Positions 1 through 22,528 of a DNA stretch of 30,671 bases are shown one piece after another; position 1 is the stretch's first letter, and the number at the start of each line of letters is the position of its first letter. The position numbers and the translations under genes are program-made. A model generated the notes under the pieces. That model had not been told where the DNA came from. It worked only from the letters and a program-made list of their open reading frames with translations, and searched no databases. The stretch is from Oligoflexus sp. (lineage in GTDB: Bacteria; Bdellovibrionota_B; Oligoflexia; Oligoflexales; Oligoflexaceae). The stretch is from assembly GCA_041736305.1 (NCBI GenBank), contig JBGSTX010000083.1:1-30671 (forward strand), read 5' to 3'.

Positions 1-3000
1 CACTCCCTTAAAATCCAGCTGGCGAACCACACCGATCTCATACATATCACGGATGGCTTCGATTTCTGAGTGGCCGTGATGGACTTTGGTAAAACCCTGA
101 GTGGCATCCAATCCGCAGTAGTTGATCAGGACTGTCGCGCCGCCCGGATGCATCCCGATAAATTCAGTGATGTTGTAGACGACATTGTCGATGATCATCC
201 AATAGCCTTTCAGCCTGTTGTTGTGATCGACTACGGTAGAGATATCGTACTGGACTCGTTCCGTTTCCCAAGCGCGGGCATGCGTGAACACTTCCTGCAT
301 GAAGCGACCTTCGGCTGCCGTTTCGCAAAGACTCTGATGAGCAGCTTTGAGACGGGCCGCTGGAGAACCGCTGAAGAAGCGGGAAAAGCCACGTTCAAGC
401 GCCTCTAGTATAGCCTTCGCAAAGCGCGTTCGGCCGCAAATATAAAGGTAGGCTCCCCTCCCACCGTCCTCGGGCTTTTGCAGCATAGTCCACAGTTGCT
501 GGATGGTATCTTCTCGGAGGAGCAGGTCCTGGATGTGGCAGCGAGGGGAAGATTCATAGGTGAACTTCCCATGATTCGCTGAGGACTTTTTAAAGACCGG
601 GCGCGTATCCTCTTGTGAAAAAATAACATCGAGTCGCAAGGAGCCTTGCGCGAGTCCTGGTATCAGATCATCTTGGTAGTAAAAGTAGTCCCGGGACGGA
701 AGTCCCAGCATGATCCACGCAGGGCCGCTCACCTTATCATGCATACGCGAAGCCAGAAAACTGCGGAAGGGAGCGAAGCCGGTTCCACCGGCTATCATAA
801 TCAGCGGGGTGCTGGGATCCTGCGGCAGACAAAAGCGCGGCGGATGATCGATGATAAAGGAGATGAGGTTCTTGCTGCCGTTGCTGGTTGCGAGAAAGTT
901 GGACGCAGTACCGAGACGCTCGGTAGGACCGTCGTCGCCTTCTGCCTGATAGCGCACCCGGCCCACGGTCAGATGAATTTCGCTCGCCGTTGCCTGAGTT
1001 TCCATGGCCGACGAGATTGAATACATACGAAACTGTTCAGGTGGAACGACCCGCGCAATGTGAGCGGGCGAGTGATAATCGCTCCGCCAAAGGCGAGAAG
1101 GGTCGAAGCCGTCTTTCTTCAAAAGCAATAAGAGGTCCCAGAGCTCCCAGCGAGCTGTGTTCTGATTTTTGATAGCATGAGCCAGAGTCTTGTTCTGAGT
1201 CAGAGCGTGCAGGGCTTCGGCCAGACGGGGCACGACCGGACGAATCTTCGCAAAGCGGAGAAAGGTGCGAAGATTGAGGCTATTGCTAGCCTCGTAGCCC
1301 GAGCGTAAGTGGGCTGCCTGCACCCACTCTTCGGTTAAGAGAATCAGATCATCGCCGGTGGATTCGAGAGCAGCTAGGGTCTTTTCGATCAGTTCTTCGG
1401 AGTTTTCTGGCAGAATGCCGCAGCGATCGCCTGGGGCGTAGCGTATCCCCGCACCCGAAACATCGATCACGACGTGCTTAACGTTCTGGGGACCAGAGAG
1501 ATGCGTCTGCCCCACCGATTTGATAATTCCGTAGTGGCAGCGACTAGGAAATGATTCGAGACGCTCGAGTCGTGAATACTCCAACTCAGCATCGACCTGT
1601 TCCCAGGTACGGTCTTTGAACACGCCCGAAAAACCGCCGATCGTCACCGAACGGCCAACTTTGAAGGCGATTTCAAGGTAGCCAAAGACTTTCATGCGAT
1701 GCCGTCCCAGAAATCCGTTCCTGCCCGCATAGATTTCGAAAGCTTCTCGGAAGAGGCCCATGAGGCTTTCATCTTCCTTTTGACGAACATAATCCGGAAT
1801 GGAAATTTGGGCTGTGGCGTCGATGAAATCCTGCCAGAAAGCTGGGTAGGTACTCCTAAGCTCTTTGATCTCCTTACCAAGAAAGGTCGCGTGCTTTTTT
1901 CGACCAAAAAAAGTGTCGAGGAGGTTAAAGATGGGCGACGAGGTCCCACTCGGCCCTTGGACCCCGGGCTGCACCGGCACGGCAAAGGGTGCCACCGTTT
2001 TCGCCCAGACCACGGGATCTACATGACTCTCGGCTGCAGCATTGGGATTTATCTTGGGCAGCGCTTCGTGAACGACCCGGCTTAGACAGCGGATAATGAG
2101 GTTCAATTCATCGGCAAGGCCGAGCTTGTCATCGATGCGCACAGCTTCTTGGCTGCGGACGATAGCGCCGATGATGGGGGAGCAACGAGCTAATATTTCA
2201 GCTTGCGTCAGATAGAAATGCTGCTCTTCCTGATTGCTTACCGTAGGAATTAACAGTCGCATGTTTTCGACGCGAAAGGGGTCTTCGGCCTCAGGGTCAA
2301 TAAAACGCCAGTTATAGACGATCAGATCGATGTAGCTCAAGACCTCCTGTTCGCGCCCCAAGCGACGTCTAACGTCGGCCCAGGGTAGGTGCAATGCAGG
2401 TGCTAGTTTACTGGGTAGATCGGTTTCAACATAGGCATAGGCGTGCGAAAGCATCGCGAGCACTGCCCCAGCTCGCAAAAGATAGGTGTCAGCTAGGTGA
2501 TCTTCGCTGGCGTCGAGGGTAGGCATCGCCTCGATAGCCTTGCGCAAGTCCAGAGTGCGATAGAGTTCGGGAAGTTTGGCCACTATATCGTCCCAGATAT
2601 GGAAAGGCTCTGGCAGCTTGAGTCTGGGATTTTCGAGCGGCATGAATCCGCGAGAGAGTGAGAGCGATCCGAGATTTTCGTGGCCCAGCATGCGATTGAT
2701 GCGCTCGGCCTGGGTGATGACCGTGCGGGTAGGCACCTCTTCCCGCGGTTTTTTAGGGGAAGCGCGCTGGACCTGGGTGTTTCTTGAGAGGTCGAGCCGA
2801 TAGTCCATTTGGCCTACAAATTGGTACTCACGGTCGAATTCGTGGAGATAGTTGGTCAAATAGCGCTTCTGCCCATCGTTGATCAGACCTTTGAATATTT
2901 CTTCGAGAGATTCTTGCCCGGTACTCGAGTCCATTCTTTTGAGGAAAAAGAGAGTCATATCCTTAGCCGCAAAAAAATCCCGAATATAGGCATGTTCGGG

Positions 3001-3579
3001 TCGGGCCTTGCTCATATCGAAAACGGCACCGGCCAAAGCCGTATGGAAAGCTTGACTCTTAAGATCTTCTTTTGAAAAAATCCGTAAGGGACGAGTAGGA
3101 AAGTAGAAGGGTCTGAACACCGGGTCGGGCCTCACCTCGATCGCCTTGAGTCGGCGAATATACTGCGGGTCCAGATTCATCTGCTCGGCCCCTTTGAGCA
3201 GAATGTTAAGATAACGTCGGGAAGGTTGATAGCCTTCCTGCAGTCGTTCGCTGATACCAAGGTATACGTAAGCCGAGACGGAGCGTCCTGTATAGGTGGT
3301 AACCATCGTCTTGACCCGACGGTAGCTGACTCCCACAGCCTCCAGCTCGTCCAGCACTTCCAGCTGTTCGCTGCGGCAGGAATAGAGCACCCCGTGGACC
3401 ACTTCCCCTTCCGCCGCCTCGATGTTGCCAGTGCCACCCTCTATAAGGAAGAAGTCAGGAATATTGAAGGTCAGACGCCAGGCGTCAAGGATCGCCGGCT
3501 CGGCCGAAAGCGGGGTAACACCCTTGGCTTTCAACGATTTGACGTTCATATTGGAACCATAGCCGAAGTAATAAAACAT
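1..3579 (-). CDS. Large multidomain oxidoreductase, 3'-partial, >=1193 aa: GGCT + MAPR-like cytochrome b5 + IDO/PrnB-like heme domain + FAD/NAD(P)H (CPR/CysJ/FNR-type) reductase + cytochrome b5
   Basis: Translated by hand: ATG at 3579-3577 (in-frame TAG TAA just upstream), no stop down to base 1; absent from the ORF track. GGCT: MFYYFGYGSNM...LDELE...PSRRYLNILLKGA. b5-like: IFSKEDL...ALAGAVFDMS...FAAKDMT...EYQFVGQM. IDO-like: RGFMP...LSHAY...LPWADVRRRLGR...LSYIDLIVYNW...GPSGTSSP...RHRMKVFGYL...TIGG. Reductase: YAPGDRCGILPEN, RMYSISS, GTASNFL, AGGTGFAPFRSF, YLYICG, MQEVF. b5: WMIIDNVVYNITEFIGMHPGG...GLDATQGFTKVHH. Confidence 0.9.
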   Translation of the reverse strand, partial: MFYYFGYGSNMNVKSLKAKGVTPLSAEPAILDAWRLTFNIPDFFLIEGGTGNIEAAEGEVVHGVLYSCRSEQLEVLDELEAVGVSYRRVKTMVTTYTGRSVSAYVYLGISERLQEGYQPSRRYLNILLKGAEQMNLDPQYIRRLKAIEVRPDPVFRPFYFPTRPLRIFSKEDLKSQAFHTALAGAVFDMSKARPEHAYIRDFFAAKDMTLFFLKRMDSSTGQESLEEIFKGLINDGQKRYLTNYLHEFDREYQFVGQMDYRLDLSRNTQVQRASPKKPREEVPTRTVITQAERINRMLGHENLGSLSLSRGFMPLENPRLKLPEPFHIWDDIVAKLPELYRTLDLRKAIEAMPTLDASEDHLADTYLLRAGAVLAMLSHAYAYVETDLPSKLAPALHLPWADVRRRLGREQEVLSYIDLIVYNWRFIDPEAEDPFRVENMRLLIPTVSNQEEQHFYLTQAEILARCSPIIGAIVRSQEAVRIDDKLGLADELNLIIRCLSRVVHEALPKINPNAAAESHVDPVVWAKTVAPFAVPVQPGVQGPSGTSSPIFNLLDTFFGRKKHATFLGKEIKELRSTYPAFWQDFIDATAQISIPDYVRQKEDESLMGLFREAFEIYAGRNGFLGRHRMKVFGYLEIAFKVGRSVTIGGFSGVFKDRTWEQVDAELEYSRLERLESFPSRCHYGIIKSVGQTHLSGPQNVKHVVIDVSGAGIRYAPGDRCGILPENSEELIEKTLAALESTGDDLILLTEEWVQAAHLRSGYEASNSLNLRTFLRFAKIRPVVPRLAEALHALTQNKTLAHAIKNQNTARWELWDLLLLLKKDGFDPSRLWRSDYHSPAHIARVVPPEQFRMYSISSAMETQATASEIHLTVGRVRYQAEGDDGPTERLGTASNFLATSNGSKNLISFIIDHPPRFCLPQDPSTPLIMIAGGTGFAPFRSFLASRMHDKVSGPAWIMLGLPSRDYFYYQDDLIPGLAQGSLRLDVIFSQEDTRPVFKKSSANHGKFTYESSPRCHIQDLLLREDTIQQLWTMLQKPEDGGRGAYLYICGRTRFAKAILEALERGFSRFFSGSPAARLKAAHQSLCETAAEGRFMQEVFTHARAWETERVQYDISTVVDHNNRLKGYWMIIDNVVYNITEFIGMHPGGATVLINYCGLDATQGFTKVHHGHSEIEAIRDMYEIGVVRQLDFKGV

Positions 3580-3725
3580 GCCTGACCCTTACTAAAGAGG
3601 ACGAAAGCGCTCTATGCGATCTGCTTTTGCTTCTATTGTAGAGCCGATGGCCCTCGATTTTCTTCAGTAATTTCTAATTTCTGTCGGTGGGTAAGAAGTA
3701 GGAGCTTGTGATAAGTTTAAAAGGC

Positions 3726-3780: not shown

Positions 3781-4650
3781 ATGCCACATAGAAAAAAATC
3801 ACCGATAGCGAGCACGAATCAAGCCGACTCAGGGGCGGGCCTGGCCTATGACTTCACCCTCTACCAGTGGCCGGCGAGCCGCTACACGGACAGCATCTAT
3901 GTCCGTTGCACTAAGGTTCACCGCTTGCTGGGCCTCTTGCAGCTGAAATACAGCGTAGCTGATGTCAGCCTTCCGAAAAGCGCCAACGAGTCTGAAATAT
4001 CTGATAAAGTCAATCCTCTGATGAAAAAGATCCCGATAATGAAAATCGATGGTGGCCAACTCGTCGAAGGAACTTCGAAGATTGTCCACGAGCTCCTGTT
4101 TCGCACAGGTTATAAGGGCTTTTTCCCCTCCAACCCTCTCGAAGAGAGAATGAGCTGGTTCATCGAGCATTGGGCTGAGCGCTGGCTAGTCTGGATGGTG
4201 ATCTACGGGCGCTGGTTTAAGGATGAGAATTACCTGAATTTTGTTAAGACCTTCACCGCGGCCCGCAACAACAGTGACATTCCACTGAGCATCAATTTCG
4301 TGCGGATGCGTGCAGTGCAGATTCTAAAATCTACGGAACTTGGTGGCCTTAAGCCAGGGCCTTATCTCCAGGAACTCCATGCAGGGGCGACGATGCTGGA
4401 TAAGATTCTGGCTCAAAACCAGTTCCTGCTCGGCCCCAAAATCAAAGAATGCGATCTGAGCATCTTCATGTCGCTGCAGTCGCTGCACGACCCTTCTCTG
4501 CGCGAAGAATCCCTGCTTCTTCGAGATTTCAAACATCTCATGCGCTGGCTGCAAGAAGTCGATGCCATGACCCAAACGGCTCACACCCGCCCGATTCCTT
4601 CTGGGCGCGACTGCGACGAGTTTATTCAGGCGAATGCCAAAACTGCTTGA
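3781..4650 (+). CDS. Glutathione S-transferase family protein (metaxin/FAXC-like subgroup)
   Basis: N-domain TLYQW...RCTKVHRLL...KIPIMKIDGG.LVEGTSKIV (cis-Pro loop, ES-like GT); C-domain LDKILAQNQFLLG...ECDLSIFMSL...HLMRWLQEV; RBS GAGAGGA. Confidence 0.75.
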   Translation: MPHRKKSPIASTNQADSGAGLAYDFTLYQWPASRYTDSIYVRCTKVHRLLGLLQLKYSVADVSLPKSANESEISDKVNPLMKKIPIMKIDGGQLVEGTSKIVHELLFRTGYKGFFPSNPLEERMSWFIEHWAERWLVWMVIYGRWFKDENYLNFVKTFTAARNNSDIPLSINFVRMRAVQILKSTELGGLKPGPYLQELHAGATMLDKILAQNQFLLGPKIKECDLSIFMSLQSLHDPSLREESLLLRDFKHLMRWLQEVDAMTQTAHTRPIPSGRDCDEFIQANAKTA

Positions 4651-9526: not shown

Positions 9527-10897
9527 ATGAAGATTTGGGCGCGTCTGCAGCATTATTACAGCTTCTTCATCGTCTCCGACGTAGGCATTACTGAGAAGGA
9601 GCGGGAGTATATCAAAGCTAAAGAAGACCGCAGGTTTGATGGAGTCGCGTCTAAATTTTTGACCAGTGCCGCTCTTATCATGCTGCTGAGCGCTCTCGCG
9701 ACTTTTGTACTGAGCCCCTATCCACAAAAATTTCCGCAGAGCCTTACCCATTTAGTCGTTGCAGTCTTCTTGATCTTTATGAGACTGGCCTTCGCTAGAA
9801 GTAAATTCAATCTGCGCCCAGCGATTTTAGTGGCCCAATACCTCCTCACGCTAGGCTACGCCTGGACGCTGCGAGTCACTTTCAGCCAGGTACCGGATAT
9901 CAATGATGTAGCGATCCTCTCGGCCATTTTTATTGCCATTATGATCTTCAATATCGCACTTTTTCCCTTCAAGAACGGCCTAGTGGTTTTTACAGCCTTT
10001 GCTCACGTTGCGATAACTTATTTCGCATGGAGTGCGAGCCCAATTTTGAAACCTTTCGATTGGATCTTCGTCGCCAGTCTCTGCGCAGCGTTCGCAATTG
10101 CAGTCTTCTACTTCCTTACCTATCTATCCCGGAACGAGGCTCTAGGAGAACTCGCGACGCGGCAGCTCCTGAATCATCGACAGACCAACCGCATTTTAGC
10201 GCTGCAACGGGACATGGAAGTCGCCGGCGAGATCCAGGACTCGATAGCGCCGCGAGAATCGATCGTGACAGGCCATGGCTTGAAGGTTTCATTTTACCAG
10301 ATCAAGTTCGATCTCTTGGGAGGCGATTGGTGTGCGGTGCGAAGCTTTGACTCTGGGGACCTGGTCCTCGTCGTCGCTGATGCCACTGGTAAAGGCATTC
10401 AGGCGGCGCTGGTCATTCATTCGATACAGACGCTTTGGGCAAATGCTCTGAGCAGTCCGACCTTCGACTCTGAAACCTGGCTGAATTCGGCCAACAGAAC
10501 GCTCATTGCTTTGGGCCAGCGCAAAGAGCATACGATGTCGCTCGGTTTGGTCATCATTCGCAAAGAAACCGTCACTTACTACTCGGCAGGACACTTACCG
10601 CTTTTTCTGGTTTTAAAGGTGGAGGATAAATTTCAAGTTCAAACCCTAATCGCGCGTGGTTCGCTCCTCGGCATGAGTGAAAATCTGCAGCTGCAGCCTC
10701 GTGAAATCACCCGTTCAGGTCTATGGATTGAAGCTCTTTTGCTTGGTACGGACGGTGTTTTCGAAGGTGGCAGCTCTTATAAGAATCGTACCGTATTAGA
10801 ATTAGTATCTCGCGTTAGAGCCAGGGGTGCGGCGGCGCTAGAGGACTGCCCGGCGCAAGACGATAAACTGCTGGTCTGGGTTGAACAGACAGCTTAA
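9527..10897 (+). CDS. Membrane-bound PP2C/SpoIIE (RsbU-like) Ser/Thr phosphatase
   Basis: ~6 N-terminal TM helices, then AGEIQ, LGGDW, VADATGKGIQAAL, SAGH, TDGVFE, QDD. Confidence 0.88.
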   Translation: MKIWARLQHYYSFFIVSDVGITEKEREYIKAKEDRRFDGVASKFLTSAALIMLLSALATFVLSPYPQKFPQSLTHLVVAVFLIFMRLAFARSKFNLRPAILVAQYLLTLGYAWTLRVTFSQVPDINDVAILSAIFIAIMIFNIALFPFKNGLVVFTAFAHVAITYFAWSASPILKPFDWIFVASLCAAFAIAVFYFLTYLSRNEALGELATRQLLNHRQTNRILALQRDMEVAGEIQDSIAPRESIVTGHGLKVSFYQIKFDLLGGDWCAVRSFDSGDLVLVVADATGKGIQAALVIHSIQTLWANALSSPTFDSETWLNSANRTLIALGQRKEHTMSLGLVIIRKETVTYYSAGHLPLFLVLKVEDKFQVQTLIARGSLLGMSENLQLQPREITRSGLWIEALLLGTDGVFEGGSSYKNRTVLELVSRVRARGAAALEDCPAQDDKLLVWVEQTA

Positions 10898-10978: not shown

Positions 10979-12439
10979 TTGACACAGTCGCGAAACGCTC
11001 ACGACAATCGAGAGGCAAGGCCTGTCGAACCGCCGAAGTTAGAACACATTCGACCCTTTCGCGCGAGCCAGATCAATATCGAGCCTTGTTCCGCTCGGGT
11101 TGAGGGTCAGATTCCGCCTTGGCTCAGAGGTGAACTAGTCCGGACTTGTCCTGGTGTCTTCGACCTCCCTCAGTGGAAAGCTGAACACTGGTTCGATGGA
11201 CTTGGATTGATTTTTACCTTTAAATTTCACGAACAGGGCGTCAGTCTCCGCTGTCGCCAGCTTGATTCGCGGGCTTCACGCTTGGCAGTCGCGGGTGAGA
11301 ATCCCTATGCGACCTTCGATACGAAAATAAAGAGAAGCGGTCTGAAACGAATTTTTGAGCCAGTACCCCGGGCCACTGACAATGCGAATGTCAACATCGT
11401 TAGCTATGGCGATGAGTGGGTTGCCCTAACTGAAACTCCCTTTCCAGTTATCGTCGATAAGAATGATCTGAGCACGAAGGGTTACGTATCCTTTGCGGAC
11501 AGTTACCCTGAGCGCTGTATCATGACGGCCCACCCTCACTTCGACTTCAGCCGAGGGAAGGTCGTTAACGCGTTAGTCTATATCGGAGCTTTTTCCTATA
11601 TCGCGTTTTATGAGCATGATGGCTCTGGTCGAAAGCGCGAAGAAATCGCTCGCATACACTTTCAAAAATTACCCTATATTCATTCTTTCGCTATGACTCC
11701 GCAGCATATAATTCTCGTCTCTCATCCATTTCGCGCTTTTGGACCTCGTTTTCTCTGGTCGAATCAGGGTTTCATAGAGGCTTTCAACTGGAATCCTCAG
11801 GATGGGACCGACATTTATGTTTTCGATCGGAGCAGCAGAAAGTGGTCGGTCTACGAAACTGAAGCGCTCTTCACGTTTCATTTGGCTCATGCATTCGAGC
11901 AAAAGGGTGAGCTCGTGCTCGATCTGGTGGCTCATCCCGATCCTAGTTTCATCTTTACTTATCGAACAGAATCCCTACGCCAACAGCTCCCTATTTTGCG
12001 AGGCCAGCTGCAACGTCTGCGTATGCAGCTCGGACAGAAGACAAGCTCGCTAGAAACCATCACTAAGCTAGGGATGGAGTTTCCGAGTGTCGCCTACAAG
12101 AGGACCCAGGGCAAAGCTGCCCGCTGGGTGTGGGGTGCGGGGACCATGGGCGAAGCAGAGACCTATCGATCGACTCTTATAGCAAACGATGTCATCAGCG
12201 GCAGAACAACAACATACAGCGAAACAGATATTATATTTGGCGAGCCTGTTTTTGTGGGAAAACCCGGGACTGATGACGAAGCCAATGGTGTAATCATCGC
12301 TGTCGGCACTCACCTGCATAAGGACCGTTCGGTTTGCGTGGTCCTCGATGCAGCTAGCTTCAAGCCCATCGCTCGGGTCGAGGTCGATTACGCTTTGCCA
12401 CTGGGTTTTCACGGCTCTTTTTTTGCCGATACCGTTTAG
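10979..12439 (+). CDS. Carotenoid cleavage oxygenase (RPE65/CCD family)
   Basis: VEGQIPPWLRGEL, HWFDGLG, four Fe-His motifs TAHPH, IHSF, FHLAHAFE, GFHG, plus GEPVFV; TTG start after AAGGAG. Confidence 0.93.
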   Translation: MTQSRNAHDNREARPVEPPKLEHIRPFRASQINIEPCSARVEGQIPPWLRGELVRTCPGVFDLPQWKAEHWFDGLGLIFTFKFHEQGVSLRCRQLDSRASRLAVAGENPYATFDTKIKRSGLKRIFEPVPRATDNANVNIVSYGDEWVALTETPFPVIVDKNDLSTKGYVSFADSYPERCIMTAHPHFDFSRGKVVNALVYIGAFSYIAFYEHDGSGRKREEIARIHFQKLPYIHSFAMTPQHIILVSHPFRAFGPRFLWSNQGFIEAFNWNPQDGTDIYVFDRSSRKWSVYETEALFTFHLAHAFEQKGELVLDLVAHPDPSFIFTYRTESLRQQLPILRGQLQRLRMQLGQKTSSLETITKLGMEFPSVAYKRTQGKAARWVWGAGTMGEAETYRSTLIANDVISGRTTTYSETDIIFGEPVFVGKPGTDDEANGVIIAVGTHLHKDRSVCVVLDAASFKPIARVEVDYALPLGFHGSFFADTV

Positions 12440-14144: not shown

Positions 14145-16499
14145 CTAGGCTTGGGTTTGGGCAGCCTTAGAGCTGGAGTTGATAGTGTGCATGAGATCTT
14201 TGAAGTTGATGGGTTTGCTAAGATAGTGGCACATCCCCACCTGCAGGCAGCGCTCGCGTTCCTGAGCGAGGGCGCTCGCGGTCAAAGCCACGATAGGGGT
14301 CTGGCGGTTTTTGGAGCGAGGACTGTTTTTAATTTGCTCCGATGTCTTAACTCCGTCGATGTCGGGCAGGCCGATATCCATCAGGATCAGGTCGTAGCTT
14401 TCTTGCTCGCAGTTTGTAATGGCCTTCTGGCCCGTATCCGCTTCAACTGCGGAGAGTCCGCTCATGGCCAGATAAGTCCTGATCAGCTCGCGATTAACTG
14501 GATCGTCCTCAACCAGCAGAATTTTCCGCTGTGACGATTGAAGATTCGGCAGAGTGGCCGGAGCTTCTGACTTCCCTTCGGAAAAAAGCGCCGTGAAATG
14601 AAAAGCGCAGCCACCTTCAGGCCGATTCTCATACCAGATCTCGCCGCCGAGAGTTGCCACCAGCCGTTTGCAGATGCTGAGACCCAGGCCGAAACCTTGC
14701 TGCTTTTTTTCGAGCTTTTGGCGAAAGGGATGCATGAAAGAATCAAAAACGACTGGCCCGATCTCAGCAGGAACACCAGGACCATCGTCGATCACGCTGA
14801 AGCATAAACAATACTTGCCTGCTGGAATACCTGGCTTAGTTTGCTCTCTGCAGTAGAGTTCAATATGCCCTTCATCACTAACGAACTTAGAGGCGTTACT
14901 GATCAAGTTGATAAGAATTTGTCTCAGTACGAGCAAGGGGCCCTGCAGGGGGGGTAGATCCAAGGGAATGGAGTACAGGGTAAATTTAATATTCTTGCTA
15001 CGGAAGAGTGGGTCAAACGAAGCCTCAATTTCGGCCAGCTCTTCCTCCAGATTGAAGGTGCTGATCTTCGACGAGACAGTACTGCTCTCCGACTGAATAA
15101 GCTCTAGCGTCTGATTTACCAGAGCCAGGAGGTCCTGGGCGCGAGTTTGGATAATCTTCATCCAGGCTCGCTGCTGCTGGCTGAGAATAGTGGTCTTCAT
15201 GAGTTCAGAAAAGCCCAGGATGGCGGTGAGTGGAGTGCGAAACTCATGACTGATGCTGGCCAGAAACATAGTCTTGGCTGCGTTAGCGCTCTTGGCTTCT
15301 TCCGAACGCAAGTCGGCTAGACGCATAGCTTCTTCGGTGTCTCTTGTGCGCTCCTTGACGGCGCGTTGCAGCTGGAAGACCCAGCCCAAGGAAAATATGA
15401 GAAGTAGTACTATGCCAGCCCCAACGAACCCAAATCGCTGGGCCATCAAGTGACTTTGGACGGCCGGCAATTGGTATACAAAACCTTTTAGGCGCTCTAT
15501 ACGAAGGTTTTGTGGATCGAGTATCACCAATTCTCTAGCCATCTTCTCCCAACGAGCCTGATTCATCGAGCCTAGCTCAATAATGTCCGGCAGGATGAGA
15601 TGTCGCATGACGGTAGCTTCATAACGCAATCGATCGCGCGTGATCCGGCGTTTTTGGACCGAAGGCTGAGCGAGAATATAGTCGATCACCTCTTCGGGAT
15701 GTTCAAATGCGTAGGCCCAACCGTCGAAGGTAGCTTGCCGGAATTTTTCTACTAAGTCCGGATGCTTGGCCAGGTACTCCGCATCGGTAAAAAGAGTGTC
15801 TCCATAGAATTCCACTCCGTAGTCAACGGGATAAATCACATGATAAGGAATGTTCAGTTCTCGGAGGCGATAAAGCTCACCGGTGGCGTAGGCGCCGTTG
15901 GCGTCGATCTCGCCCCGAACGATAGACTCGAGGTTCCACCGAGGAGGTACCAGCGTGACTTCGTCGAGTTCGATACCCTGTTTTCGAAACATAGCCTTGA
16001 AGAGATAAGAGCCTCGCCCCTCGGCAATTCCAACTCTCTTGCCACGCAGATCGTCGAGGGTCATGATATTGCGGCGAGCCAGGCTGACGAGACAATAGGC
16101 AGAATGTTGGAAAATGACACCCAGCGCCACCAGAGGATCACCCTTTAAACGCCGCCAGAGAACATCGGTATCAGATACGCCGAAATCAGCCGAGCCTCTG
16201 AGAACGGATTCTATCGGGTCATGCTGTGGACCTCCTTCTTGAATCGTTACATCTAGATCACTTTTGTCATAAAGACCGAGATACTGAGCAGCATAGAAGC
16301 CGGCAAATTGGAACTGATGAAAATATTGCAGCTGCAGTTTAACGGGCGATTTGCCAGCTTGGGTTTCAGCGAGCGATAGGTCTGGAACGGCAATCCAGAA
16401 AAGAGCTATGCCTAGCAAAAGCCTGATTATTGTGCAGCCGAACAGCAGATGCATAACTCGTACTCGCGTCGAGAGATTTAAGCCAAGCAGAACCCTCAC
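14145..16499 (-). CDS. Hybrid histidine kinase with NMT1/THI5-like periplasmic binding sensor domain and receiver domain
   Basis: LQLQYFHQFQFAGFYAA (NMT1), TM, H-box SISHEFRTPL, N-box NLISNASKF, DDGPG, GFGLGL, REC LLVEDD/LMDIGLP/KP. Start uncertain (alternative ATG 16454). Confidence 0.9.
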   Translation of the reverse strand: MRVLLGLNLSTRVRVMHLLFGCTIIRLLLGIALFWIAVPDLSLAETQAGKSPVKLQLQYFHQFQFAGFYAAQYLGLYDKSDLDVTIQEGGPQHDPIESVLRGSADFGVSDTDVLWRRLKGDPLVALGVIFQHSAYCLVSLARRNIMTLDDLRGKRVGIAEGRGSYLFKAMFRKQGIELDEVTLVPPRWNLESIVRGEIDANGAYATGELYRLRELNIPYHVIYPVDYGVEFYGDTLFTDAEYLAKHPDLVEKFRQATFDGWAYAFEHPEEVIDYILAQPSVQKRRITRDRLRYEATVMRHLILPDIIELGSMNQARWEKMARELVILDPQNLRIERLKGFVYQLPAVQSHLMAQRFGFVGAGIVLLLIFSLGWVFQLQRAVKERTRDTEEAMRLADLRSEEAKSANAAKTMFLASISHEFRTPLTAILGFSELMKTTILSQQQRAWMKIIQTRAQDLLALVNQTLELIQSESSTVSSKISTFNLEEELAEIEASFDPLFRSKNIKFTLYSIPLDLPPLQGPLLVLRQILINLISNASKFVSDEGHIELYCREQTKPGIPAGKYCLCFSVIDDGPGVPAEIGPVVFDSFMHPFRQKLEKKQQGFGLGLSICKRLVATLGGEIWYENRPEGGCAFHFTALFSEGKSEAPATLPNLQSSQRKILLVEDDPVNRELIRTYLAMSGLSAVEADTGQKAITNCEQESYDLILMDIGLPDIDGVKTSEQIKNSPRSKNRQTPIVALTASALAQERERCLQVGMCHYLSKPINFKDLMHTINSSSKAAQTQA

Positions 16500-16704: not shown

Positions 16705-17691
16705 GTGATGATAGTGAACGGCAGAAAAATTCTTGGAACACTCGTAACGCTGCAGCTCCTCTCGTTATCTCATGGAGGATGCAGTCGGAGCAGTTCAGGC
16801 GATGATGATGTAGCGTCTTCGAAAGAGCCTCAAGGTGTTAATGACGGTGCTGAAGGCTTGAGCGTTACCATGGATAGTGTATCCGAGCTCATCAAGATCG
16901 AGGATGTTCCAACCTGTAAAGGCGGAGACGTCCAGCTCTATGCTGACCTCGCTTACCCGAAACCGGTGGAAAATAAGCTCCGCCCAGCACTGATCTTTAT
17001 TCACGGCGGCAGCTGGACAGCTGGCTCGAGGAAGGACTTCAGTCAGTTCATCGCGTACGCAGCCAAGCGGGGTTATGTTGCAGCTACTATCCAGTACCGC
17101 CTGACTGAACCTGTTTTTCCTAATGAGATTTTCGATGTGAAGTGTGCGGTACGCTGGATGCGAGCCGAGAGCAATCGCTATGGAGTTGATCCCAATCAGA
17201 TTGGGGCTTTTGGAGCATCAGCTGGTGGACATCTCGCTCTCATGCTGGGGACGACCGCAGGAGATGCTTCGCTCGAAGGGGATGGCGGCTTCGGGGAATA
17301 TTCAAGCGCAGTCCAGACCGTCGTGAACTGGTTTGGTCCCGCTGATCTTGCGGCCCTTTATAGAACACTGGACGCAGATGGCAAAAATGGTTTCGATCGC
17401 AATCTAGGCGGATCACCCGAGTCGAAGCCCGAAGTTTATGCCCGCTTCAGTCCTCTCAATATGGTGAATAAAGCGAGTGCACCAACTATCACCGTGCACG
17501 GTGATGCTGACCCCTTGGTGCCCTATGCTCAAGGTCTGGCTTTGAAAGCCCGATTTGAGGAAGTCGCGGCGCCTCATGAATTGGTGACTGTAGTCGGAGG
17601 CGGACATGGATTTCCCGAAGCGAAAACCATAGAGGCTCTCGATAGCAGCTTTGAATATTTGGAACGGGTCTTACCCCTTCCTCAAGATTAA
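16705..17691 (+). CDS. Exported alpha/beta hydrolase (HSL-like esterase/lipase), possible lipoprotein
   Basis: HGGSW oxyanion motif, GASAG nucleophile, HGDAD, GGHGF; signal-like N-terminus ending HGGC. Confidence 0.9.
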   Translation: MMIVNGRKILGTLVTLQLLSLSHGGCSRSSSGDDDVASSKEPQGVNDGAEGLSVTMDSVSELIKIEDVPTCKGGDVQLYADLAYPKPVENKLRPALIFIHGGSWTAGSRKDFSQFIAYAAKRGYVAATIQYRLTEPVFPNEIFDVKCAVRWMRAESNRYGVDPNQIGAFGASAGGHLALMLGTTAGDASLEGDGGFGEYSSAVQTVVNWFGPADLAALYRTLDADGKNGFDRNLGGSPESKPEVYARFSPLNMVNKASAPTITVHGDADPLVPYAQGLALKARFEEVAAPHELVTVVGGGHGFPEAKTIEALDSSFEYLERVLPLPQD

Positions 17692-19286
17692 CGGGATTTA
17701 GTCCCAGATAGTAGGCTTTCGAGTTTCTTGGCTATATCGCTAAGATCGCAGATGTGGTCGACAGCGCCCAGCTGAATAGCTTCGCGAGGCATGCCGAAAA
17801 CAACAGAGGACTTCTCGTCCTGTGCAATGGTTTGGCAGCCTTGCTCTTTCATTGCTTTCATACCTCGGGCGCCGTCGGCTCCCATTCCCGTCAGTATAAT
17901 GCCGATAGCCTTGCCCTTGGCGAGCTTGGCCACTGAATCGAAGAGGACATCGACAGAGGGTTTATGTCTATTCACTGGGGGGCCGTCCTCGACCTTCACG
18001 CGAAAGCCATAGCCATCCTGGACGATACGCATCTGCATGGCACCTGGAGCGATGAGGACGCGTCCAGCCAGAACCTGATCGCCGTCTGCAGCTTCTTTGA
18101 CCTCGAAAGGGCAAATACTGTTGAGGCGATCGGCATAGGCTTTAGAAAATACTGGGGGTATATGCTGGACGATGACTATGGGCGGAATATCGGGACTGAG
18201 CTGAAGCAGGACTTCTTGCAGCGCTTGTGTGCCTCCCGTGGAAGCTCCTATCGCGACCAGAGGGCGGCCACTCGTCCTTTGGGTGCATTTCACAGCGCGG
18301 GTGCGGCTTTCTGAAATCCTTCCAGCTCGGATATGCGCAGAAGCTGCTGCCTTGATTTTCTCGCAGATCTGCGGTGCTAGCAGGGGAAGTTCCGCCATTC
18401 GGGGTTTTTGGATATAGTCGACGGCACCAAGTTCCAGAGCTCTGAGGACTTCGCCTCCGTCTTCCATGCTCAGAGCCGTCAACATCACTACGGGCATCGG
18501 CCGTGTGCTCATGAGTTTTGTGAGATACGCAATCCCGTCCATTTCGGGCATATGGATGTCGAGAGTCATGACGTCGATCGCTTGCGATTTGAGGATTGCA
18601 TCCGCTTCGCGAGCGCTCGCTGCCATCGCTGCGACTTCAAGCTCGGGGTCCTGTCCGAAGACAAGTTTGAGCATTTCTCGAACTGTTTTCGAATCGTCGA
18701 CGATGAGCACGCGTTTTCGCTTCGGTTTCTTCTCCGGGAGCGCTTTGCTAGCTAGGGGAGTCGGGGCGATCTTCAGGATTGCTTTCTCGCTTATTTCGCC
18801 AACTGGACTGACGCGCAGCTTTCCCGAGGCGGTATAAAAGAAAATCTTTCGGCCTTGCCGCCCTCCGACATCGGAAGCGACGATTTTGATTCCAAACTCG
18901 CTCAATAGCTTCTTAGCCATATTCTGATTATGCTCACCAATTTCACCACTGACTAGCCCAGGACCGCGGATGCTGGCGCCCCCGATGATCTTGGCTCTCA
19001 GGTCTCTAGCGAGTACACCGGGGGTTTCCAGAATGGTTTCAATCAGAGTACGGGTCGAGGTATTGCCATAGCGAAGGTAATCAGCTGCAGCCGCTTTGGC
19101 CATAGGATCTTTGGGAAGCACGAAGTGATTGATGCCGCCGATCGTACCATGGATCGAGTAGATGCAGACGGAAATGCAAGATCCCAGCACGGTGCTGACG
19201 ACAGCGGGCTGATCCGAGATGACGATCTCTCCGATACCGAGGCTGATGTAGAGCTGCTTAGGGGCTCTTGGATCCGCGCTTCCCAT
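17688..19286 (-). CDS. cheB: CheD-CheB fusion (receptor deamidase + REC-methylesterase)
   Basis: N-terminal CheD (TVLGSCISVC, GGINHFVLP, RYG, AKIIGGA, IGEHN, DVGG..GRKI) in frame with REC (IVDDS, TLDIHMP) and methylesterase (GASTGG, VQHIP, GMGADGA). Confidence 0.92.
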   Translation of the reverse strand: MGSADPRAPKQLYISLGIGEIVISDQPAVVSTVLGSCISVCIYSIHGTIGGINHFVLPKDPMAKAAAADYLRYGNTSTRTLIETILETPGVLARDLRAKIIGGASIRGPGLVSGEIGEHNQNMAKKLLSEFGIKIVASDVGGRQGRKIFFYTASGKLRVSPVGEISEKAILKIAPTPLASKALPEKKPKRKRVLIVDDSKTVREMLKLVFGQDPELEVAAMAASAREADAILKSQAIDVMTLDIHMPEMDGIAYLTKLMSTRPMPVVMLTALSMEDGGEVLRALELGAVDYIQKPRMAELPLLAPQICEKIKAAASAHIRAGRISESRTRAVKCTQRTSGRPLVAIGASTGGTQALQEVLLQLSPDIPPIVIVQHIPPVFSKAYADRLNSICPFEVKEAADGDQVLAGRVLIAPGAMQMRIVQDGYGFRVKVEDGPPVNRHKPSVDVLFDSVAKLAKGKAIGIILTGMGADGARGMKAMKEQGCQTIAQDEKSSVVFGMPREAIQLGAVDHICDLSDIAKKLESLLSGTKSR

Positions 19287-19292
19287 TAGGAT

Positions 19293-20138
19293 TCACTTCA
19301 CTTTCTTGCGATAGACGGACGGCCGCAACCTTTCCCAACCTGCAGTATCCTTCTGCAAGGCTTCCGAGTGGCCTACAAAATGATAAGCTCCAGGTTTGGC
19401 CGCTTCATAGAGGTTTCTGATCACTTGGGTGATCGTCTCTGGCGCAAAGTAGATCAGGACGTTCCGGCAGAAGATGACGTCGAATTTATGTTCCCAAGGA
19501 AAGGGGGGAGCGATCAGGTTGCACGCTTTGAAGCTTATTTTGTCGCGAATATGTGCTTTGACACTGATCCAATCCTTGATTTCCTTGGTCCCGAAATTGA
19601 AAGCTTCTTTGTGATACTGAAGCGGAATTTCCGAAAGTCTAGCCTTTTTATAGACACCATTTCTAGCTATGGGCAGGACGCTCGTATCGATATCGGAAGC
19701 TGCTACCGAAAAATCGAAATTATGGCGCTTCTTCGCATCACTCAGCACCATGGAAAGCGTGTAAGGCTCTTCACCAGTCGAACAGGGTACCGACCAGATT
19801 CGCCAAGGACCGCGCGGACGGCCACCTAACCATTCGGGCAAGGCTTCGTTTACAAGATACTGGAAGTGCTCTTCTTCCCTAAAAAAATCGGTCTTGTTGG
19901 TCGTCAGGCAGTTGAGAAAAATCTGCCACTCCTCATGGCTCTGCGGCAGAGATTTGAGGAAGTCTACATACTCGTGCAGCGATTTTAGCTGAAGCGTCAG
20001 CAGACGTTTTCTCAGCCGACCCATCAGCAGATCGGACTTGGATTCAGACAGAGCGATGCCCGCCATGCCTTCAAGAGTGCGCCGGAGGTATTGGAACGAT
20101 TCACGATCAACTGACTGGCGGATTTCGGCGACGCTCAT
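19293..20138 (-). CDS. cheR: Chemotaxis protein methyltransferase
   Basis: LTTNKTDFFRE, RIWSVPCSTGEEPYTL, ASDID, FDVIFCRNVLIYF, GHSE. Confidence 0.96.
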   Translation of the reverse strand: MSVAEIRQSVDRESFQYLRRTLEGMAGIALSESKSDLLMGRLRKRLLTLQLKSLHEYVDFLKSLPQSHEEWQIFLNCLTTNKTDFFREEEHFQYLVNEALPEWLGGRPRGPWRIWSVPCSTGEEPYTLSMVLSDAKKRHNFDFSVAASDIDTSVLPIARNGVYKKARLSEIPLQYHKEAFNFGTKEIKDWISVKAHIRDKISFKACNLIAPPFPWEHKFDVIFCRNVLIYFAPETITQVIRNLYEAAKPGAYHFVGHSEALQKDTAGWERLRPSVYRKKVK

Positions 20139-20154
20139 ACCAATCCATTCAAGT

Positions 20155-20191
20155 AAAAATCCTGCTCGAACACCAAAGCGTCGAGTAGGAT
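20155..20191 (-). terminator. Intra-operon stem-loop with U-tract between mcp and cheR (possible partial terminator/stabiliser)
   Basis: Arms 20159-20169 ATCCTGCTCGA and 20181-20191 TCGAGTAGGAT (one mismatch on the minus transcript), 11-nt loop, followed on the minus strand by TTTT. Confidence 0.5.
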
Positions 20192-20200
20192 GCTTAGAAA

Positions 20201-21961
20201 TTAAACTTCAGTAAACCGTGGGTCGTCTTCAGAAGGTATTACGTCACTGCCCGATGCCATACGCACCTGGGAAGGCTGAGGTGCGTGCTTCGATTTCTTT
20301 GCGCCGAGATGCAGGACGCGGCCGTTCTCCTTCGGCGGATTTGCCGATTTACTCGCTCTCTGAACCTGACGCGCAGGAGGAGCAACGTGATGAACTTGAG
20401 CGGCATCGCCGCCCTTGATAGTGACGATGAGCGTCTGTACAACAGCTTGCATGCTCTCAGCCTGGGCGGAAAGTTCTTCAGCGGCGCTGGCGGTCTCTTC
20501 GGATGCAGCCGCATTCTGTTGGGTCATCTGATCTAGTTGCGTCACAGCCTTAGTGATTTCGGCGATACCCCTTGCCTGCTCGTCGCTAGCGCCGGATATG
20601 GAGTGAGACATAGAGGCAACCTGTGAAACATTGCTAACGATCTCTTCGAGAACTTCGCCGCAATCGACCGCTACCTTGGTGCCGAGCTCAACTTTCTGCT
20701 TGCTCTCTGTGATCAGTTTCTCGACTGAGGAGCGCGTCTCCCGGACGATACTTTCAACTTTTTGAATGCTCGAGTCGAGCATGGTGGAGATTTCCTTGGC
20801 GGCGTTACCACTCATCTGAGCCAGATTGCCTACTTCTTCGGCGACAACCGCGAAACCCTTGCCGTGCTCACCGGCGCGAGCGGCTTCCACCGATGCGTTG
20901 AAGGAGAGGAGCTTAGTCTGGAACACGATGTCGTTGATGACTTTGGTCTTATTGCCGATTTCACTGATGACTTTGACGATTTCAGATATTTTTTCGTTAC
21001 TTTCGTTGGTCTGATGCATGATGTTGCTGTTGGCTGCATCGATGTCTTGCATAGCCCGCTTCATCTCTTCGACGACCTTCTTGCCTCGCGTGGCACTGGT
21101 GCCGCTGGCGGTAGAAACTTCGGAACTTTGGCGAGCGCTTTCAGCATTCTTTTGGACCATCGAGTTCATTTCCTCGACAGCGGAAGAGGTCTCTTCCAGC
21201 GAAGATGCCTGCTCGGTAGCCCCCTGCGAAAGCTCCTCTGAAGACGCGGCGATCTGCTGAGCTGCTGACGTTACTTGGTTTGCGCTGTCATTCAATCCAG
21301 AGATGACATTGTCAATAGCTTTATTCAAAGCGCGAAGAATGAAGAAGGCCAAAGTGAGTCCGATCAAAATTGAGGATAGACTTACGGCTAAGAGGATATT
21401 CCGCGATTCTGTGTAAAGCGCAATTGCGTTCTGCTCTTCTACTATCATCATCTTGTCATTGCGTTCCACAACTGCATTCAAGCGATCTGATACACCATTC
21501 ATGAGATCTCGAGATTTGCCTCGGGCTAGAGCTGTAGCCTCGACGTTCTTGCCCATTCTGCTTAAACGTTGAATTTCAGCATCAACATCGCTCCAGCGCT
21601 TGACGTCTTCTATTGAGACTTCGAGTTCTTTCTTACTCACTTCGAGGACAAGCATGCTTTTCAGCTTTTCCATATCAGCCGTGAGAGATTTCTCAAGGCC
21701 CGCCAGCACGCCTTCGATCCTGTCCATGCCTTCTTTGCTAGACTCGAGGATGAATACTTTTTCTTGGTTTTTTATTTCGGCTGCGGTAGCTAAAAGCTTC
21801 TGCGAGATAGCGACGCGAGGCACTACACTGGTAACGATATTATCCAGAGAATCATTGAGTTTGCTCAACTTAAAGATACCCAAGATAGAGATGAGCAAGC
21901 TTGCCGCGACAAAAATTGAGAGGACTCCAACGAACTTTGCATTAAGGCTCAGATTCTTCAC
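20201..21961 (-). CDS. Methyl-accepting chemotaxis protein (four-helix-bundle sensor)
   Basis: TM1, periplasmic helical domain, TM2, signalling hairpin [30 protein letters not shown], methylation helices, flexible tail ending DDPRFTEV. Confidence 0.96.
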
Positions 21962-22000
21962 AAAATTACTCCTCGACCTATGTTGATTTTAACTTCTTTG

Positions 22001-22528
22001 TCAAGCTGCATGCCGCTTTGCGGCTTGATTTTTCAGAGTAACCAGATCGTCGACACTCAAAGTCTTTTCAATGTCGAGGATGAGAACGAGCTTTTTGTCA
22101 ACTCGCGCCACTCCAGTCAGATAGTCAGAGCTAATAGTGCTTTCCAGATCGGGAGGGGGAATGATGTCTTCCGATGAGAGTGCGAGTACAGCGTCGACCG
22201 AATCGACTATCACGCCTATACAGAGCGGGCTCAAATCGAGGATAACGATAGCTGTCTCCGCTGTGGTGTCAGCCCGCTGCATCTTGAACTTGACCCGTAG
22301 ATCCATCACGGAAATGACCTGGCCTCGCAGGTTCATGATGCCCTTGAAATGCGACGCAGTGTAAGGCACCGTGGTAATTTCGCCAAGTGCGATCACTTCC
22401 CGCACTTTGAGCAGGGGAACCGCATAGGATTCATTGCAAAGAGCAAATGCCAGAAACCTGTGCTCGCCGCCTGTCGATCGGCGAGAGCTCGATTGTTTGG
22501 TTTCTGACTTGGAGCTGTCTGAACTCAT
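22001..22528 (-). CDS. cheW: Chemotaxis coupling protein
   Basis: FLAF..YAVPL..VREVI, GIMNLRGQVISVMDL, GVIVDSV; ATG overlaps the cheA stop (ATGA). Confidence 0.95.
   Translation of the reverse strand: MSSDSSKSETKQSSSRRSTGGEHRFLAFALCNESYAVPLLKVREVIALGEITTVPYTASHFKGIMNLRGQVISVMDLRVKFKMQRADTTAETAIVILDLSPLCIGVIVDSVDAVLALSSEDIIPPPDLESTISSDYLTGVARVDKKLVLILDIEKTLSVDDLVTLKNQAAKRHAA

Follow-up and report, generated by a model that had tools for sequence, protein, structure and literature searches.

The window analysed here, a stretch of 30,671 nt from Oligoflexus sp. (assembly GCA_041736305.1, contig JBGSTX010000083.1, positions 1 to 30,671, forward strand), carries at one end a fusion gene whose predicted product is a cytoplasmic haemoflavoprotein of seven modules: a gamma-glutamyl cyclotransferase (GGCT) domain, a domain resembling the cytochrome b5-like fold of the membrane-associated progesterone receptor (MAPR) type, an indoleamine 2,3-dioxygenase (IDO)-family haem domain, a CysJ-type flavin adenine dinucleotide (FAD)/NAD(P)H module without flavin mononucleotide (FMN), a bis-His cytochrome b5 (b5), a helical domain and a STAS/SpoIIAA-like domain. 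The reading we favour, and to which we would give about even chances, is a self-reducing IDO-type oxygenase (NAD(P)H to FAD to b5 to IDO haem) embedded in signal transduction, rather than a plain enzyme of the kynurenine pathway. The design is unstudied, and could show how IDO-type haem enzymes stay active or serve as sensors.

Integrity and completion of the reading frame

The frame of the fusion gene comprises 1193 codons without a stop, from an ATG at 3579 to base 1 on the minus strand, and is open at the window edge (Table 1), matching at every coordinate an original prediction, made from the letters of the window, of at least 1193 stop-free codons. Window position 1 is the end of contig G000:C320, in an assembly (G000) of 392 contigs that is 92.7% complete, so the truncation is due to assembly and not to biology. 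That further domains might follow past the window had also been foreseen, and was borne out: when the window's own genome was searched with P0002, the closest full-length relative (1571 aa, 85% identical), the missing C-terminal 371 aa turned up outside the window, on another contig of that assembly, C382 (locus L002, G000:C382:3-1118), with P0002 residues 1200-1571 matching C382 bases 6-1115 and the 371-aa part 81% identical to P0002. The window part ends ...LDFKGV, the C382 part starts ..SLKDQARSVVG, and P0002 has five residues between the two, which places about 5 residues in the assembly gap. Since the C382 part adds the helical and STAS/SpoIIAA-like domains, the protein has seven modules in about 1570 aa.

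The fragmentation of the assembly, and the splitting of this gene across two of its contigs, are what might be expected of a chimeric reading frame made by misjoining metagenome contigs. Stops, frameshifts and misassemblies between domains were looked for, and none was seen. Contigs from one public run (X1) are identical to the window over 9-915, 935-1085, 1168-3295 and 3288-3699, and independent contigs from a second (X2, from another study, ~96% identical) are colinear with it with 0 gaps, one of them bridging the contig end and extending 2906 bases past window position 1; neither run shows a stop, indel or joint across the gene. The same architecture is moreover present in relatives on long contigs or complete genomes (a 7.57-Mb contig of O. 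tunisiensis, a 10.3-Mb contig of Sandaracinus), and the artefact is effectively refuted. Among the differences listed between X2 and the window, 37/40 fall at third codon positions of the fusion frame (111 further differences lie outside that listing); with no gaps at 96% identity either, we regard the gene as intact and as evolving under purifying selection.

Table 1. Positions in the window of the fusion gene, its domains and the divergent neighbouring gene.
Feature	Position	Strand	Basis or remark
Fusion gene, N-terminal 1193 aa of ~1570-aa protein	1..3579	minus	ATG at 3579, no stop to window edge
GGCT-type gamma-glutamyl cyclotransferase domain, aa 1-152	3124..3579	minus	Pfam, fold match, motif
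MAPR/cytochrome-b5-like fold, aa 161-260	2800..3099	minus	AlphaFold2 model and structure comparison
Low-confidence linker, aa 261-305	2665..2799	minus	Predicted local distance difference test (pLDDT) 40-71 over residues 261-300
IDO-family haem domain, aa 306-690	1510..2664	minus	Pfam, IDO1/IDO2 matches; GPSGTSSP loop
CysJ/cytochrome P450 reductase (CPR)-type FAD and NAD(P)H module, aa 697-1098	286..1491	minus	Pfam, NCBIfam, CysJ 1ddg
Bis-His cytochrome b5 domain, aa 1111-1190	10..249	minus	Pfam PF00173 aa 1116-1185, E 4e-18
Glutathione S-transferase (GST)-like gene, 289 aa, divergent from fusion gene	3781..4650	plus	Weak GST_N_4/GST_C_2, below cut-offs

Modules of the protein

Membership of the central domain in the IDO family is clear from Pfam (PF01231, aa 307-525, E 1.9e-32, 113 bits against a cut-off of 26), from a match to IDO2 (E 2.6e-12) and from profile comparisons (IDO1, E 2.8e-18 over 294 positions; IDO2, 4e-16). 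Motif conservation was counted in 45 full-length relatives, full-length members being ~1560-1590 aa, and cofactor and catalytic motifs were retained in 40-45 of them. The active-site loop GPSGTSSP aligns with GGSAGQSS of IDO1 and recurs as GPSG[TS]SS in 43/45, and many other positions of the IDO core are nearly invariant in the family. A candidate proximal haem ligand, His627 (codon 1699-1701, within GRHRM), lies in a G[RK]H[RK] motif kept in 44/45, and its distance from the GPSG glycine is exactly 85 residues in 42/45; the same spacing separates G261 of IDO1 from His346, which we take to be the proximal haem ligand of that enzyme.

The reductase module is made up of FAD_binding_1 (aa 698-895) and NAD_binding_1 (aa 928-972) by Pfam, is matched over its whole length by NCBIfam CysJ-type alpha subunits (E 3e-41, below equivalog cut-offs), and matches CysJ 1ddg (E 1.3e-31) and the reductase domains of BM3, CPR and nitric oxide (NO) synthase (E 1e-13 to 4e-20); its RxYS and GGTG motifs are present in 40/45 and 44/45 relatives. 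No flavodoxin family was matched at E<=1 when the 1193-aa frame was scanned against Pfam, and a gap of only ~7 residues lies between the IDO domain and the FAD module; the protein accordingly carries a CysJ-type FAD/NAD(P)H module, not a diflavin reductase. In the b5 domain that follows, the axial histidines are His1144 (HPGG, codon 148-150) and His1167 (codon 79-81), with HPGG, and a second His at +23, each found in 45/45.

Towards the N-terminus, the GGCT domain is recognised by Pfam (GGACT aa 4-108, AIG2_2 aa 61-144, E about 2e-11) and by phmmer against human GGCT (E 8.5e-9), and its model superimposes on human GGCT 2i5t (Z 23.7, 161 aligned, 27% identity). Glu80 (codon 3340-3342), invariant in alignment A1, aligns with Glu98 of the human enzyme, presumably the catalytic residue there; the YGSN motif (aa 7-10) aligns too, and is present in YGSN-type form in 44/45 relatives. 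To judge from these residues, the domain looks catalytically competent.

The region between the GGCT and IDO domains is a different case. When aa 1-300 were modelled with confidence (AlphaFold2, 45 relatives, pLDDT 89.8), aa 161-260 came closest, in a scan against representative structures, to the b5-like domain of PGRMC1, a MAPR protein (4x8y_B; Z 8.7, root-mean-square deviation 2.7 A, 86 aligned), with 13 further b5 entries at Z 5.1-6.8, so that 14 of the top 27 rows were of b5 type. At the level of sequence, no Pfam family was matched at E<=1, PF00173 included; phmmer against the Protein Data Bank (PDB) gave chance UvrA matches only and a profile against PDB 0 matches; and hhalign to the family's own b5 domain returned a probability of 0.16%. 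Because these sequence-level tests failed, the domain is called a MAPR-like fold here and is not filed as a family member. Residues His196, Tyr198, Met216 and Tyr252 are invariant across nine diverse members (alignment A4, window numbering) and HPGG is absent; the first three are candidate ligands, should the domain bind haem, and no counterpart of PGRMC1 Tyr113 could be picked out. PGRMC1 itself is described as holding haem by Tyr113 alone, both b5 axial histidines being missing, with propionate contacts from Tyr107, Lys163 and Tyr164 (PMC4802085). Unlike PGRMC1, the domain in the window has no membrane anchor and adjoins a GGCT domain in the same chain.

The 371-aa C-terminal part, which matched no Pfam family at E<=0.01, was modelled with a pLDDT of 89.3 as a helical domain (residues 3-220, including one helix of 75 residues) followed by an alpha/beta domain (243-368). 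The latter has a SpoIIAA/STAS-like fold (2q3l_B, Z 10.3, 114 aligned), other entries of this kind scoring Z 6.5-8.3 (stressosome 7b0u 8.3, STAS 4xs5 8.2, RsbS 6jhk 8.1, SpoIIAA 1tid 7.3); Foldseek gave a probability of 1.00 and a target template-modelling score of 0.64 against 2q3l and 4xs5, but an E of only 0.025. As modelled, then, the last ~120 aa are filed as a STAS-like fold and not as a profile-defined STAS member. The helical domain is a family-specific orphan: its best match among known structures (Z 8.4) is below chance level for helical models, Foldseek found none at E<=0.001, and in the ESM Atlas, where the recognition score was below trust level, only generic helical clusters were returned.

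The five domains named in the original prediction are thus all present, and in the order given. It had placed the IDO-type helical haem domain at ~2664-1561, with a candidate proximal His codon at 1701-1699 that is exactly that of His627; a CPR/CysJ-type module at ~1530-286; and a bis-His b5 at ~250-25, whose HPGG His codon, 150-148, is precisely that of His1144. For the MAPR-like b5 placed at ~3090-2806, the b5-like fold stands and sequence-profile membership does not.

The family and its signalling partners

The family is widespread and conserved. A word-indexed search in which 8000 candidates were scored returned 495 proteins at E<=1e-3, and among the best 120 of these, carriers with a species name include Oligoflexus tunisiensis, at 71% identity, and Sandaracinus amylolyticus, at 50%, alongside metagenome-assembled genomes labelled Kofleriaceae, Polyangiaceae or Chloroflexi. 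Within the window's own phylum the distribution is patchy, the gene being found in 13/131 genomes, and in 7/14 of its own genus counting G000. Source databases annotate members only as ‘cytochrome b5 domain-containing protein’, ‘gamma-glutamylcyclotransferase’ or ‘sulfite reductase alpha subunit-like flavoprotein’. Pfam places GGCT at the N-terminus of 86 of the best 120, FHA instead in 13 and neither in 21, FHA replacing the whole GGCT-MAPR module in the Chloroflexi-type members; by a rough motif count on the same 120, GGCT and STAS motifs occur together in 60 proteins, GGCT without STAS in 20, STAS without GGCT in 11, and neither in 29.

The helical domain alone, in an exhaustive HMMER search, has 193 representatives among 1.84e9 proteins. 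Of the 150 listed, 68 were scanned against Pfam (62 of 239-812 aa, and 6 long), and none had a foreign architecture: Cyt-b5 precedes the helical domain in 58/68, ending 10-21 residues ahead of the helical match in those compared (P0125, P0130, P0151), and of the 10/68 without a Pfam match, six (e.g. P0122, P0123) start, by their match positions, where the helical domain does or close to it. Given that IDO-b5-helical forms without a reductase exist, IDO, b5 and the helical domain constitute a constant trio, with three optional additions: reductase, GGCT-MAPR module and STAS-like domain. Shorter members having the core architecture also occur, P0100 being one. This invariant trio, the optional modules, the FHA and cyclase slot swaps and the stand-alone GGCT-MAPR operons are new here. 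The original prediction knew of no characterised protein with this architecture, and a search of the literature likewise turned up no paper on an IDO-b5-reductase fusion, subscription journals being largely uncovered by it, so that a description may exist. A preprint on cytochrome P422 was considered as a relevant system and rejected, that family being unrelated and Cys-ligated.

A cyclase can take the place of the STAS-like domain. In family f13, of the same order, the G048 protein (P0066, 1793 aa) ends in a Guanylate_cyc (adenylate/guanylate cyclase) domain, while the G047 protein stops after the helical domain (1439 aa) and its stop codon is overlapped by 4 bp by a gene for a 374-aa cyclase module, 73% identical to G048 residues 1420-1792. 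The two are a fusion/fission pair, in which the cyclase holds the position taken by the STAS-like domain in the window protein. A third f13 genome, G049, has the gene in two pieces followed by a 375-aa cyclase-module gene; the two pieces are overlapping open reading frames (L032:7796-9631 and L032:9592-12078, 611 and 828 aa), which could reflect a frameshift, a pseudogene or a sequencing error. The ~200 residues ahead of the f13 cyclase domain match no Pfam family. Identity of the f13 module with the GAF-cyclase of the kinase giants described below was considered and rejected, only the catalytic domains being alike (26% identity). Two genes downstream of a STAS-form member in G014, a 410-aa protein (L029:6161-7393) is 28% identical to G048 residues 1458-1785; it has no Pfam cyclase match, and a histidine kinase lies between it and the family gene.

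Other signalling genes also accompany the family. Kinases of PAS-HisKA-HATPase-REC type divergently adjoin the family gene in L025, L027 and L028, and SpoIIE-type phosphatases lie within a few kb of it in the window, L003, L026 and L027. A metagenome scan with the N-terminal alignment gave 80 loci, 34 of which matched through the MAPR-like domain: one is a full IDO fusion (L034), one is cut off (L033), 22 encode a separate GGCT-MAPR protein and 10 are too short or unresolved. This stand-alone protein (~262 aa, 41-49% identical to aa 1-260 of P0002) adjoins a 238-aa protein and/or a giant of ~1700-1840 aa in 22/34 loci, and all three genes are visible in order in 11/34. By Pfam, four of the giants comprise Pkinase, AAA_16 and GAF, then Guanylate_cyc (L035, L061, L063) or GGDEF (L036). 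The three-gene operon, GGCT-MAPR then 238-aa then a giant of ~1780-1840 aa, is seen at L035:10001-16973 and also in L040, L046, L050, L052, L053, L054, L057, L059, L061 and L071, often with a PF04185 phosphoesterase gene upstream (L035, L061, L071). The 238-aa protein matches no Pfam family, finds only hypothetical clusters in the Atlas (with a 13% lead to DUF4336), and shows no BLAST similarity at E 1e-5 to the family of the window protein. Three uncharacterised pieces are thus worth naming: the b5-attached helical domain, the bacterial MAPR-like domain fused to GGCT, and the 238-aa operon partner.

Taken together, the non-universal reductase, the exchange of GGCT for FHA, the slot shared by STAS-like and cyclase modules, and the GGCT-MAPR operons incline us to see in the window protein an oxygenase or sensor linked to signalling, and not a plain catabolic enzyme. 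The original prediction, a self-sufficient haem oxygenase with gamma-glutamyl processing attached, stands as regards domains and motifs; a plain catabolic oxygenase with a gamma-glutamyl side activity is disfavoured by the swaps and by the optional reductase. These swaps, and the kinase-cyclase operons, suggest that bacteria use IDO-type chemistry or O2 binding for signalling. Kynurenine signalling is central in animals, and we know of no bacterial counterpart.

Electron path, rival readings and neighbouring genes

From the domain content we infer, as the most economical reading, a wire leading from NAD(P)H through FAD and b5 to the IDO haem. NAD(P)H would reduce FAD, which would pass electrons singly to the b5 haem; b5 would in turn reduce the IDO haem, either keeping it ferrous or feeding it electrons during turnover; and the ferrous IDO haem would bind O2 and oxidise a small molecule of indole type, though not necessarily L-tryptophan in free form. 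The GGCT-MAPR module at the N-terminus and the helical-STAS module at the C-terminus may act as input and output modules, tying this chemistry to signalling and not to bulk tryptophan catabolism. That an NAD(P)H reductase and b5 are built in suggests that electrons are delivered repeatedly, which points to catalysis, and a TDO (tryptophan 2,3-dioxygenase)-like protein, MarE, is said to be a monooxygenase modulated by ascorbate. Cytochrome b5 has been proposed as the physiological IDO reductant (PMC4191572), and a concurrent monooxygenase pathway is reported for human IDO (PMC12921851). How IDO stays ferrous in cells is described as still debated, with cytochrome b5 as the leading candidate (PMC4191572); a natural NAD(P)H-FAD-b5-IDO chain, if that is what the fusion is, would be a direct and tractable model of the IDO electron path.

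Human IDO1 and IDO2 have the IDO-family haem domain (PF01231) in common with the fusion, and b5 is the proposed haem reductant there too (PMC4191572). In the human system, however, b5 and its reductases act in trans, whereas in the fusion b5 and an NAD(P)H-FAD reductase share one chain in a bacterial host, alongside the additional GGCT, MAPR-like, helical and STAS-like modules. P450 BM3/CYP102, CYP116B and NO synthase likewise combine a haem domain with a CPR/CysJ-type FAD/NADPH module in one polypeptide; the fusion differs in having an IDO fold with a candidate His ligand instead of Cys ligation, and b5 haem as mediator instead of FMN or 2Fe-2S, and if the wire exists it would play for IDO the part that BM3 plays among P450s, and would lend itself to indole oxidation as a cofactor-independent biocatalyst. 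Ncb5or, too, fuses a b5 domain to an NAD(P)H flavin reductase (its b5, 3lf5, matches the N-terminal b5-like domain at Z 6.6), but it has no IDO domain, and its reductase is of b5R type, not of the CysJ/CPR type with FAD_binding_1. Since Oligoflexus tunisiensis is a cultured carrier, these proposals are testable.

Several observations weigh against an oxygenase. Alignments to solved IDO chains end at least 9 residues before His627, which leaves conservation and spacing as the grounds for the proximal ligand, and the proximal-His segment searched alone against PDB gave only a chance match (E 0.8). The position of IDO1 Arg231, which we take to be the residue that binds the carboxylate of tryptophan, aligns to His in the window protein and to Tyr in the family consensus, in a low-probability stretch of alignment beside a gap; the Arg is thus apparently not conserved, leaving the substrate class uncertain and catalysis not assured. 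The reductase is absent altogether from P0151, P0158, P0169 and P0206 (717-749 aa, IDO-b5-helical), and among the loci examined the family gene has no conserved metabolic neighbour beyond one genus. Variable signalling domains at both ends are a hallmark of sensors more than of enzymes. Lastly, an IDO fold need not be an enzyme: the IDO-like myoglobins of abalone bind O2 reversibly and have lost tryptophan catabolism (PMC4191572), although, unlike the fusion, they come from a eukaryote, consist of a single domain and have neither redox partners nor signalling domains.

These points lead to the main rival, which we regard as unlikely on balance: a pure haem gas or redox sensor, in which the IDO-fold haem would bind O2, NO or carbon monoxide (CO) reversibly without substrate chemistry, the reductase and b5 would form a built-in met-haem reductase, and the state of the haem would pass via the helical domain to the STAS-like domain or cyclase. 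Besides the abalone proteins and the apparent loss of the carboxylate Arg in that low-confidence alignment, it draws on the variability of the C-terminal slot (none, STAS-like or cyclase), which follows the 75-residue helix; on the cyclase module, fused in G048 and translationally coupled in G047; and on the alternation of FHA and GGCT-MAPR at the N-terminus. There are precedents for the arrangement of a haem domain, helical linker and STAS or cyclase output, as seen in the family: in Vibrio, O2 is sensed by a haem-globin RsbR that carries a STAS domain, and there are globin-coupled sensors with different outputs (PMC4976288), while soluble guanylate cyclase must be ferrous, its ferric haem being re-reduced by the b5 reductase CYB5R3 (PMC7949132). 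The likeness here is from architecture alone, and the family would differ in that its sensor fold is IDO and not globin or H-NOX, and that its reductase is built in.

What tells against a pure sensor is that a 400-aa reductase with b5 is costly for mere maintenance, that the GPSGTSSP loop and many IDO-core positions are nearly invariant, as for a substrate pocket, that a catalytically equipped GGCT domain is attached, and that most family members lack a cyclase; moreover, we know of no IDO-fold sensor, and none came up in the literature search. A broader version, which we offer tentatively and consider doubtful, is that the IDO fold is a new class of bacterial haem sensor (for O2, NO, CO or an indole signal), with the NAD(P)H-FAD-b5 chain as met-reductase, the helical domain as transducer, interchangeable outputs (STAS-like; cyclase in f13), and GGCT-MAPR as a second, portable input shared with the kinase-AAA-GAF-cyclase giants.

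The GST-like gene that diverges from the fusion gene (Table 1) is 54% identical to L003:8926-9777 of Oligoflexus tunisiensis, which is likewise divergent, and is no more than a possible partner of the fusion gene. Directly downstream of the fusion gene on G000:C382 (L002:1115-2095) are a convergent MarR regulator (1115-1606) and an OsmC/Ohr-type peroxiredoxin gene (1679-2095). Glutathione-based incorporation of sulfur followed by a C-S lyase is known from gliotoxin and camalexin biosynthesis, and a glutathione-pathway enzyme can be envisaged in which the IDO-type oxygenase activates an indole or aromatic, GST adds glutathione, GGCT removes the gamma-glutamyl group, and a C-S lyase may follow. 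The presence of the GGCT catalytic residues and the GST-like gene common to the window and O. tunisiensis agree with such a scheme, as do the downstream GST genes of L003 and L024, the convergent-adjacent genes for a GST-like protein and a Cys_Met_Meta_PP pyridoxal phosphate (PLP) enzyme in L026 and L027, a DCC1-like thiol oxidoreductase in L003, and the MarR and OsmC genes of the window's own genome. However, all such neighbours lie within one genus (g1), where they may be inherited synteny, and neither the GST-like gene nor the others were found in the f3 and f13 loci or at the distant fusion locus L034; the GGCT module, furthermore, is optional and, when alone, associates with signalling giants and not with GSTs. 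With the GST and PLP-enzyme neighbours confined to one genus, this is kept as a minor rival, and an improbable one.

The MarR and OsmC genes, as oxidative-stress genes, would equally suit an NO dioxygenase or oxidase, in which the reductase-fed IDO haem would turn NO and O2 into nitrate, or reduce a small oxidant, and which would resemble flavohaemoglobin in having a haem domain and a ferredoxin-NADP reductase-type NAD(P)H reductase on one chain. We give this very little weight: none of the loci examined showed an NO-responsive regulator or a nitrogen-oxide gene, the b5 intermediary, GGCT, STAS, FHA and cyclase are left unexplained, and the NCBIfam flavohaemoprotein match is marginal (E 0.0074) and to the reductase only.

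An ordinary tryptophan 2,3-dioxygenating IDO, starting the kynurenine pathway and carrying its own reductant, would account for IDO family membership, for the role of b5 as a known IDO reductant (PMC4191572), and for two PF04199 (cyclase/kynurenine-formamidase-type) genes elsewhere in the genome (C252, C117). The fusion is the only IDO in the window's genome, but a canonical TDO gene (285 aa) is already there, followed by a class I/II aminotransferase (L007:1459-3375, G000:C109), and bacterial IDO and TDO are reported to be mutually exclusive (PMC4191572, citing Yuasa 2011). Kynureninase (TIGR01814) was not found, its absence being unproven in a genome 92.7% complete; the substrate-carboxylate Arg is apparently not kept; and the gene context is one of signalling. 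An enzyme of this kind is accordingly scarcely probable, and a self-reducing oxygenase tied to signalling remains the reading we prefer.

Elsewhere in the window, a SpoIIE/PP2C phosphatase gene (9527-10897) is directly followed by a carotenoid oxygenase gene of the RPE65 family (10979-12439, E 5e-93), and at 14145-16499 a hybrid histidine kinase combines an N-terminal NMT1/THI5-like periplasmic-binding-type domain with HisKA, HATPase and receiver domains. A chemotaxis cluster occupies 17688-24282 on the minus strand, with CheA at 22525-24282, CheW at 22001-22528, a methyl-accepting chemotaxis protein at 20201-21961 and CheR at 19293-20138; its remaining member (17688-19286, minus) unites CheD, a receiver domain and a CheB methylesterase within 532 aa. 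Beyond the cluster, at 24592-25623, lies a MerR-family regulator with a B12-binding domain, of the CarH-like light- or B12-responsive type.

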